A stretch of DNA of 64,000 bases, from positions 5,737,767 through 5,801,766 of the forward strand of contig NC_057754.1 of assembly GCF_004010195.1 (NCBI RefSeq). Reading direction: 5' to 3'. The notes beneath the pieces are model-generated. The model searched no databases, was not told the origin of the DNA, and saw nothing but the letters and a program-made list of their open reading frames with translations. Every line of letters begins with the position of its first letter. The stretch's first letter is position 1. The position numbers were made by a program, and so were the translations under genes. This DNA comes from Chiloscyllium plagiosum (lineage: Eukaryota). Positions 25,499 through 26,000 of this stretch are shown one piece after another.

Positions 25499-26000
25499 AT
25501 GTATGTCTATGAGTGGCGATTAAGCCAGGCAGCAATATATTCAGTTGGCGATTCACTCGCACTGGAAGCAAGCAACCATGTTAATCCTATTAACACCGAT
25601 TTTCTTGCTGGAGATATGCTGCACTGCACAGCACACGTACACCGTGATGTCCCTGACGAACCAGATGAGAAGGATTGGTTCAGGAGATTGGTTAAACAAA
25701 ATCAGTTGTTATTGTGTGAATTTTATTGGAGTGATCACAGATGTGCAGTCAGTGTGAACTTATCTGAAGTATTTGTGACGGCAATTATACCCTATCTTTT
25801 TGGTGTGGAAGGCTCTGCTCTCATGCGTCACTGGCGAAGGTATCCAGTAATAGTTGGCAGGATTTGGGACCATGGATGCTAACTGCACAAAGAACGAAAG
25901 GTTGGGTCTCTAGGGACGATGTGGGTATCTGGTTCAATGCAGATATGCGGACAGACAAGAAGGAACTGAATTGGCTAACTCAGGCAGATAGGAAAGTCCA
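25499..26000 (+). pseudogene. 2H-phosphoesterase (CNPase-like) domain between protease and RT
   Basis: LHCTAH (His codon 25622). Restoring 1 nt at ~25820 gives GSAPHASLAKVSSNSWQDLGPW (His codon 25822), so two HxT/S motifs lie ~67 codons apart. Confidence 0.72.

Follow-up and report, generated by a model that had tools for sequence, protein, structure and literature searches.

A predicted CNPase-like 2H phosphoesterase domain between protease and reverse transcriptase in a family of shark endogenous retroviruses

The window analyzed here, a stretch of 64,000 nucleotides of Chiloscyllium plagiosum DNA, carries a decayed provirus on its plus strand. Two long terminal repeats (LTRs) enclose the remains of gag and pol, and within pol, between protease (PR) and reverse transcriptase (RT), lies a segment predicted to encode a CNPase-like 2H phosphoesterase domain. 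The features, all on the plus strand, are as follows.

22378..22835, plus: 5′ LTR with TG...CA ends and an AATAAA at 22774, matching sibling 5′ ends by up to 89 to 90%
22836..22860, plus: primer-binding-site-like stretch directly after the LTR, presumably resembling a tRNA-Pro primer site
23226..24925, plus: broken gag in several frames, with a zinc knuckle at about 24842 to 24892 (zf-CCHC, E = 1.2e-4)
25141..25460, plus: retroviral aspartyl protease with stops, DTG at 25192 (Pfam RVP, E = 0.0034)
25493..26010, plus: predicted CNPase-like 2H phosphoesterase domain, about 172 codons (about 520 nt), with a frame change at about 25820
25622..25630, plus: first catalytic motif by homology, H-C-T (His conserved in 85/104 and Thr in 91/104 homologue rows)
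25822..25830, plus: second catalytic motif by homology, H-A-S (His in 104/109 and Ser/Thr in 83/107 homologue rows)
25855..25893, plus: predicted helix after motif 2, W-x-D-L-G (model helix 122-134; Trp in 96/100 and Gly in 89/100 rows)
26040..27249, plus: broken RT of class I type, start approximate, with LWTKG at 26096 and LQYADD at 26620
27250..29046, plus: decayed RNase H and integrase, with matches to rve (E = 2.3e-6) and MLVIN_C (E = 1.5e-6)
29108..29127, plus: polypurine tract, about 60 nt past the integrase stop
29128..29493, plus: 3′ LTR of a subtype different from that of the 5′ LTR

Stops and frame changes run throughout the provirus, which is therefore a dead copy, and this copy is unable to make the 2H protein. 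No env was found between the end of integrase (29046) and the polypurine tract. Upstream, a long satellite with a 10-bp period (about 11200 to 22377) adjoins the 5′ LTR; near 19600 to 21500 it gives way to a LINE-like fragment and a gap of Ns. Downstream, three 110-bp tandem copies (30699 to 31028) are followed by a LINE-like element (31177 to 34700), whose parts we take to be an SGNH-like ORF1 and an endonuclease/RT-like ORF2, and a tandem array of approximately 70-bp units occupies positions 36564 to 37352.

The two LTRs of the window copy align poorly and belong to different subtypes. One related provirus elsewhere in the genome, L039, has the same subtype pairing, with 89% and 86% matches to the two window LTRs. 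Mixed LTR subtypes, which are also found in L046, suggest recombination between LTR families. Dating of the window copy from its LTRs was dropped, since the subtypes differ and no target-site duplication was seen.

By sequence comparison, the provirus is assignable to the class I (gamma/epsilon-like) endogenous retroviruses (ERVs), chiefly because the RT of a sibling finds its best match in murine leukemia virus RT (E = 3e-19). The best matches of protease, whose highest-ranking profile is XMRV-type protease p14, and of the integrase C terminus point the same way, as does the TLV_coat match in sibling L060, which indicates a gamma-type env in a relative.

An earlier note on this DNA, made from the sequence alone, had described an insert of about 600 nt between PR and RT that encodes two histidine motifs in different frames. 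That observation stands, except that the domain, at about 520 nt, is slightly shorter than stated there because RT begins before position 26090. Both motifs, LHCT (His at 25622) and HASL (His at 25822), are present in different frames, and the frame change between them at about 25820 is seen when the three frames are compared. Taken alone, this motif pair is within chance, as two H-x-T/S words 55 to 80 codons apart in some plus-strand frames arose in 479 of 2,000 shuffles of the segment. Such a frequency makes outside support necessary, and it is conservation across the family of copies that makes the domain real.

A search of the same genome returned 667 candidates, and the 150 that received scores had E values of 1e-38 or below. 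The window locus is one dead copy among hundreds. From the scored set, 40 siblings on large contigs were sampled, a choice biased toward likeness to the window; with the window itself, they make 41 copies. The domain is present in 40 of 40 siblings at 77 to 89% DNA identity, nearly always inside pol. Both His positions could be aligned in 39 of the 41 copies and share a frame in 26 of these 39, and 21 of the 39 carry the two motifs in a shared frame that no stop interrupts. The 13 copies with motifs out of frame may in part reflect the selection of copies by likeness to the window's own out-of-frame reading. Where siblings are naturally in frame, the domain is continuous with PR and RT. The H-A-S form of the second motif is private to the window (1/41 copies), while the usual sibling pair is HCT plus HVS (24/41). 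The presence of a 2H domain inside pol is thus confirmed.

Most of the sampled copies (L039 to L078) lack env, and they lack it in common ways, with about 80 or about 420 nt left from integrase to the 3′ LTR; given these common deletions, env-less sublineages have amplified. An env-like full-length stretch (coverage above 1,900 nt) remains in 6 of 40 siblings. Matched LTR pairs of at least 360 nt, available for 12 siblings, are 85 to 95% identical in 11 and 73% identical in one. In the env-bearing siblings, the env region opens with a stretch (in L067, 7449-7739; G000:C13) that resembles an immunoglobulin V-set domain, with a Pfam E value of 2.7e-4 that falls under the curated cutoff, and it is possibly a captured Ig domain.

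The 2H domain had a pairwise omega of 0.46; PR had 0.45 and the N terminus of RT, measured on its open part, 0.57. A neutral simulation gave 0.58, and the noncoding leader gave 0.59 to 0.84. The value for the 2H domain is only modestly below the neutral controls, which is expected if most change is decay after insertion. Because the trees were star-like, with internal branches of only 7 to 14%, a comparison of shared and private variants was used in place of a codon-model omega. The ratio of nonsynonymous to synonymous variants (N/S) in the 2H domain fell from 3.47 among singletons (250/72) to 1.14 among variants found in at least four copies (41/36; P = 5e-5). Similar falls were recorded for PR (3.49 to 1.04), the RT N terminus (3.10 to 1.24), and RNase H (3.97 to 1.00), and the two off-frames of the domain displayed no drop (2.66 to 2.88 and 3.48 to 3.13). 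The three leader frames gave P values of 0.36, 0.035, and 0.12 in the same test, and so one of three was also low. The purifying signal of the 2H domain is like that of PR, RT, and RNase H; selection preserved it, as it did the core enzymes, during the replication and spread of the virus family.

Homologues in other fish carry the domain at the same place in Pol. A HMMER search identified 118 homologous proteins (E ≤ 0.001), and in 34 of the 35 that were scanned the 2H domain has PR or RT as a neighbor. A word-seeded search of longer proteins returned none; a profile search of long proteins, with an alignment as the query, found 31 matches, each of which carries Pol families and lacks an annotated 2H family. 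Sources were looked up for 20 of the 118 and are teleosts and a sturgeon, apart from two labeled as bacterial bins, which are probably fish contamination. In homologues that include proteins from Takifugu, Danio, Gasterosteus, Cyprinus, and Acipenser, the domain lies in Pol between PR and RT, at 26 to 44% identity. Distances between 2H domains correlate with distances between the accompanying RTs (rho = 0.67; 0 of 2,000 permutations; n = 32), which fits a single ancient acquisition passed on together with Pol. Kinship by itself yields such a correlation, and so it speaks to coinheritance and not to function. One predicted protein from Scortum barcoo (P0091) combines Ig domains with a zinc knuckle and a portion of the 2H domain, although this gene model may be an artifact.

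Conservation of the motifs bears on whether the domain is an enzyme at all. It might instead be a noncatalytic scaffold or a decoy, perhaps one aimed at host CNP. That protein is induced by interferon, inhibits HIV assembly, and is described as binding retroviral Gag and blocking assembly. In the wide set of homologues, only 61 of 93 rows keep both motifs, and altered forms such as H-x-P and Q-C-T recur. H-x-P occurs in 16/107 rows and both motifs are altered in 15/93, as a scaffold would allow. Nevertheless, the catalytic residues rank with the most conserved columns, both motifs are retained in 26 of 28 long Pol proteins, and decay of ERV copies may explain many of the altered rows. We regard a purely noncatalytic role as highly improbable.

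Structural modeling was performed on a natural sibling, L007:1501-2046, in which the domain lies in one frame and which is 83% and 74% identical to the two pieces of the window, with an alignment of 75 rows. The model (pLDDT 89.8; pTM 0.86) and the structure searches based on it support the CNPase-like 2H fold that the earlier note had proposed, and all of the listed Foldseek matches with E values of 0.001 or below are CNPase or RICH. In a VIA search of 48,161 chains, CNPase ranked first with a Z score of 13.8 (root mean square deviation [rmsd], 3.3; 163 residues aligned) and the next match had 9.3; the top 21 matches are 2H proteins, with the exception of one unnamed ribosome chain. A second VIA comparison gave 15.2 for human CNPase (rmsd, 2.7; 160 aligned), 12.0 for RICH, 11.7 for the fungal RNA kinase 6u05, which we take to be Trl1, and at most 9.3 for everything else. 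The top Atlas cluster (0.96) has tRNA_lig_CPD in 22% of its members, with a recognition value of 2143 that lies below the 2300 mark, and one homologue has a Pfam tRNA_lig_CPD match (E = 0.018). The domain is thereby predicted to be a 2H fold that falls in the CNPase/RICH/Trl1 branch and has the two H-x-T/S motifs as well as a helix following motif 2.

The viral enzymes that destroy immune messengers appear to belong to a different structural branch of the same superfamily. Acb1, mouse hepatitis virus (MHV) ns2, the rotavirus VP3 C-terminal domain, and the avipox cGAMP phosphodiesterase share the two-His motifs and a history of viral capture with the Pol domain, but in the VIA search their Z scores were 5.0 to 7.6 as opposed to the 13.8 of CNPase: 7.6 for Acb1, 7.1 for ns2, 6.4 for VP3, and 5.0 for the penguinpox cGAMP phosphodiesterase, with 7.0 for AKAP18. 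The earlier note had offered as one option that the domain, like coronavirus ns2 and rotavirus VP3, degrades 2-5A and thus antagonizes OAS-RNase L. There is an OAS gene cluster in this host, in keeping with a cartilaginous fish rather than a teleost, and ns2, AKAP18, and VP3 do share the fold, though at Z scores of 5.6 to 7.1 that are half that of CNPase. RNase L was not found in this genome by an exon-wise search, which could have missed it, and the two genes with KEN domains that were found look like IRE1. Moreover, the named carriers of the domain are ray-finned fish (teleosts and a sturgeon), and OAS and RNase L are reported to be absent from, or lost in, fish (bioRxiv 693333). This option is weak, and we consider it most improbable.

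The relation to CNPase is close in structure and distant in sequence. Vertebrate CNPase and RICH (PF05881) are the best structural match and share with the Pol domain the L-H-C-T and H-x-T/S-L motifs and the helix with a Gly at His+15, a residue common to the domain and the host CNP exon. They differ in length (about 215 residues versus about 172 here) and in the spacing of the two histidines (79 versus 67 here), and the Pol domain lacks a Pfam match, a membrane tail, and a PNK-like N-terminal domain, in place of which the protease lies directly upstream. Identity to CNPase is 14 to 19%. Pfam gave no family at E ≤ 10 for three of three siblings and nothing useful on the two pieces of the window, and a search of the genome with PF05881 found only the host gene. 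A RICH profile match (E = 0.0034) was not repeated with a domain-only alignment; a Protein Data Bank (PDB) sequence search with one sibling gave chance matches only, and a domain-only profile gave nothing. This low identity, together with an hhalign probability of 0.3% between the domain and the host CNP exon, led us to discard the idea that the domain was captured recently from the host's CNP gene. By these comparisons, the Pol domain appears CNPase-like without being a CNPase gene. The cyclic phosphodiesterase of the fungal tRNA ligase Trl1 (PF08302) is likewise similar in structure; a difference is that in the virus the domain is accompanied by neither a kinase nor a ligase.

The region around the active site offers hints about the substrate. 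In the model, a helix starts 11 residues past the second His, at the place of CNPase helix alpha7, which has been described as special to CNPases and as possibly setting stereospecificity (PMC4643303). When located by motif offset, not by superposition, the CNPase ligand residues Tyr168, Phe235, Arg307, and Val321 are not kept: Phe235 is mostly Val or Ile, Val321 is Lys, Glu, Arg, or Gln, and Arg307 varies. Other residues are near invariant among homologue rows, including Lys at His2+5 (90/106), Trp at His2+11 (96/100), and Asp at His1+11 (86/104). By this count, the substrate may differ from that of CNPase.

Domains of this kind in fish retroviruses are already in print, and this shark copy adds a member. 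2H domains have been reported in certain retroviruses, including a retrovirus of fish as well as walleye dermal sarcoma virus (WDSV) (PMC9503650, citing Mazumder 2002), and epsilon-like fish ERVs are said to sometimes encode CNPase (PMC4977317, citing Basta 2009); the earlier note was correct that such domains had been noticed before. The shared element is a 2H domain in an epsilon-like fish retrovirus. Here, in contrast, the host is probably a cartilaginous fish, and the His-His spacing is 67, compared with 59 to 62 in 58 of 75 homologues. In the literature searched, largely outside subscription journals, we found neither an experiment on the function of a 2H domain from a retrovirus nor a report of one in cartilaginous fish. 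A study of shark ERVs (Han 2015) makes no mention of a phosphodiesterase or CNPase, and the main text of Nomburg 2024 mentions neither retroviruses nor CNPase.

Reasoning from sequences and a structural model, we propose, with a probability of roughly 0.5, that the domain is a virion-borne 2′,3′-cyclic-phosphate 3′-phosphodiesterase of class I retrovirus Pol. Among the three functions put forward in the earlier note, processing of RNA 2′,3′-cyclic phosphates is the best supported. Enzymes that are part of Gag-Pol are packaged into retroviral particles. A domain that sits in pol in frame with PR and RT, is kept by purifying selection, and traveled with RT in fish ERVs would, as part of Gag-Pol, be packaged at an enzyme-level copy number and enter the next cell with the core. 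Hydrophobic pairs noticed by eye at both linkers could serve as PR sites for its release, or it might stay on the N terminus of RT. The domain would then open 2′,3′-cyclic phosphates left by metal-independent host RNases, whether on RNA ends or cyclic nucleotides, to give a 2′-phosphate and a 3′-OH. The outcome might be the cleanup of damaged primer or genome ends or the removal of immune-stimulating end chemistry. Counting against this reading, the virus has no kinase or ligase with which to finish RNA repair. The 2H folds, moreover, have switched substrate many times (PMC11410667).

One such substrate might be Appr>p. Other 2H enzymes act on it, the plant Appr>p CPDase matches the model with a VIA Z score of 7.4, and fish ERVs also carry macro domains (PMC4977317). 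Yet a Pfam scan of 11 open reading frames saw no macro domain in this provirus, and a CNPase-type alpha7 has been proposed to exclude such substrates (PMC4643303). We consider Appr>p quite improbable as the substrate.

The chief rival candidate is 2′3′-cGAMP. The domain could act as an anti-STING enzyme that degrades cGAMP made against viral cDNA, including cGAMP carried in the particle; retroviral particles are known to carry cGAMP. STING was found in this host, the cGAS-STING module is described as ancient, and, by motif offset, the CNPase ligand residues are replaced by the other invariant residues listed above (Lys at His2+5, Trp at His2+11, and Asp at His1+11). Also, Acb1 and avipox 2H enzymes cleave cGAMP (PMC11410667). 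Nevertheless, the model matches CNPase far better than it matches Acb1 or the pox enzyme, and alpha7 has been proposed to limit substrate size (PMC4643303). Furthermore, env-less copies, which are without an extracellular step, keep the domain, although inheritance could account for this. An anti-STING role is possible, if unlikely.

A second placement of the fold also bears on the anti-STING role. In a search of viral folds, the best match was the 1,072-residue entry Q2VF30_1 (TM 0.76), followed by the Env proteins of WEHV1 (Q9WHI8; TM 0.70 over 174 columns) and WDSV (A4GTG3; TM 0.64 over 179 columns), and entries named Acb1 ranked after the retroviral ones. The fold is the same at 14 to 16% identity, but it lies in Env and not in Pol. 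Two membrane helices of WDSV Env, at 850-874 and 1045-1069, flank a cytoplasmic loop (PMC3185748). Judging from the size of the loop, the match in WDSV and WEHV1 Env probably lies in this cytoplasmic loop of about 170 residues, facing the virion interior. Such a placement suggests that the domain has no need to adjoin RT. It is conceivable that aquatic retroviruses, from sharks to teleosts, have twice put a CNPase-branch enzyme inside the virion, once in Pol between PR and RT and once in an Env loop, to destroy a cGAMP alarm carried or triggered by their particles; we hold this broader idea to be doubtful. For the Pol domain itself, we continue to favor a 2′,3′-cyclic-phosphate phosphodiesterase.

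Retroviral Pol is usually drawn as PR, RT, RNase H, and integrase. A fifth enzyme between PR and RT in a wide group of fish ERVs, one that is missed by Pfam, would imply a step in replication or defense that is still to be worked out. Knowledge of its substrate would point either to a difficulty with RNA ends during reverse transcription or to an immune messenger that the viruses eliminate. The natural substrate of CNPase has itself been described as unknown (PMC3290555), and the retroviral enzyme might shed light on CNPase as well.
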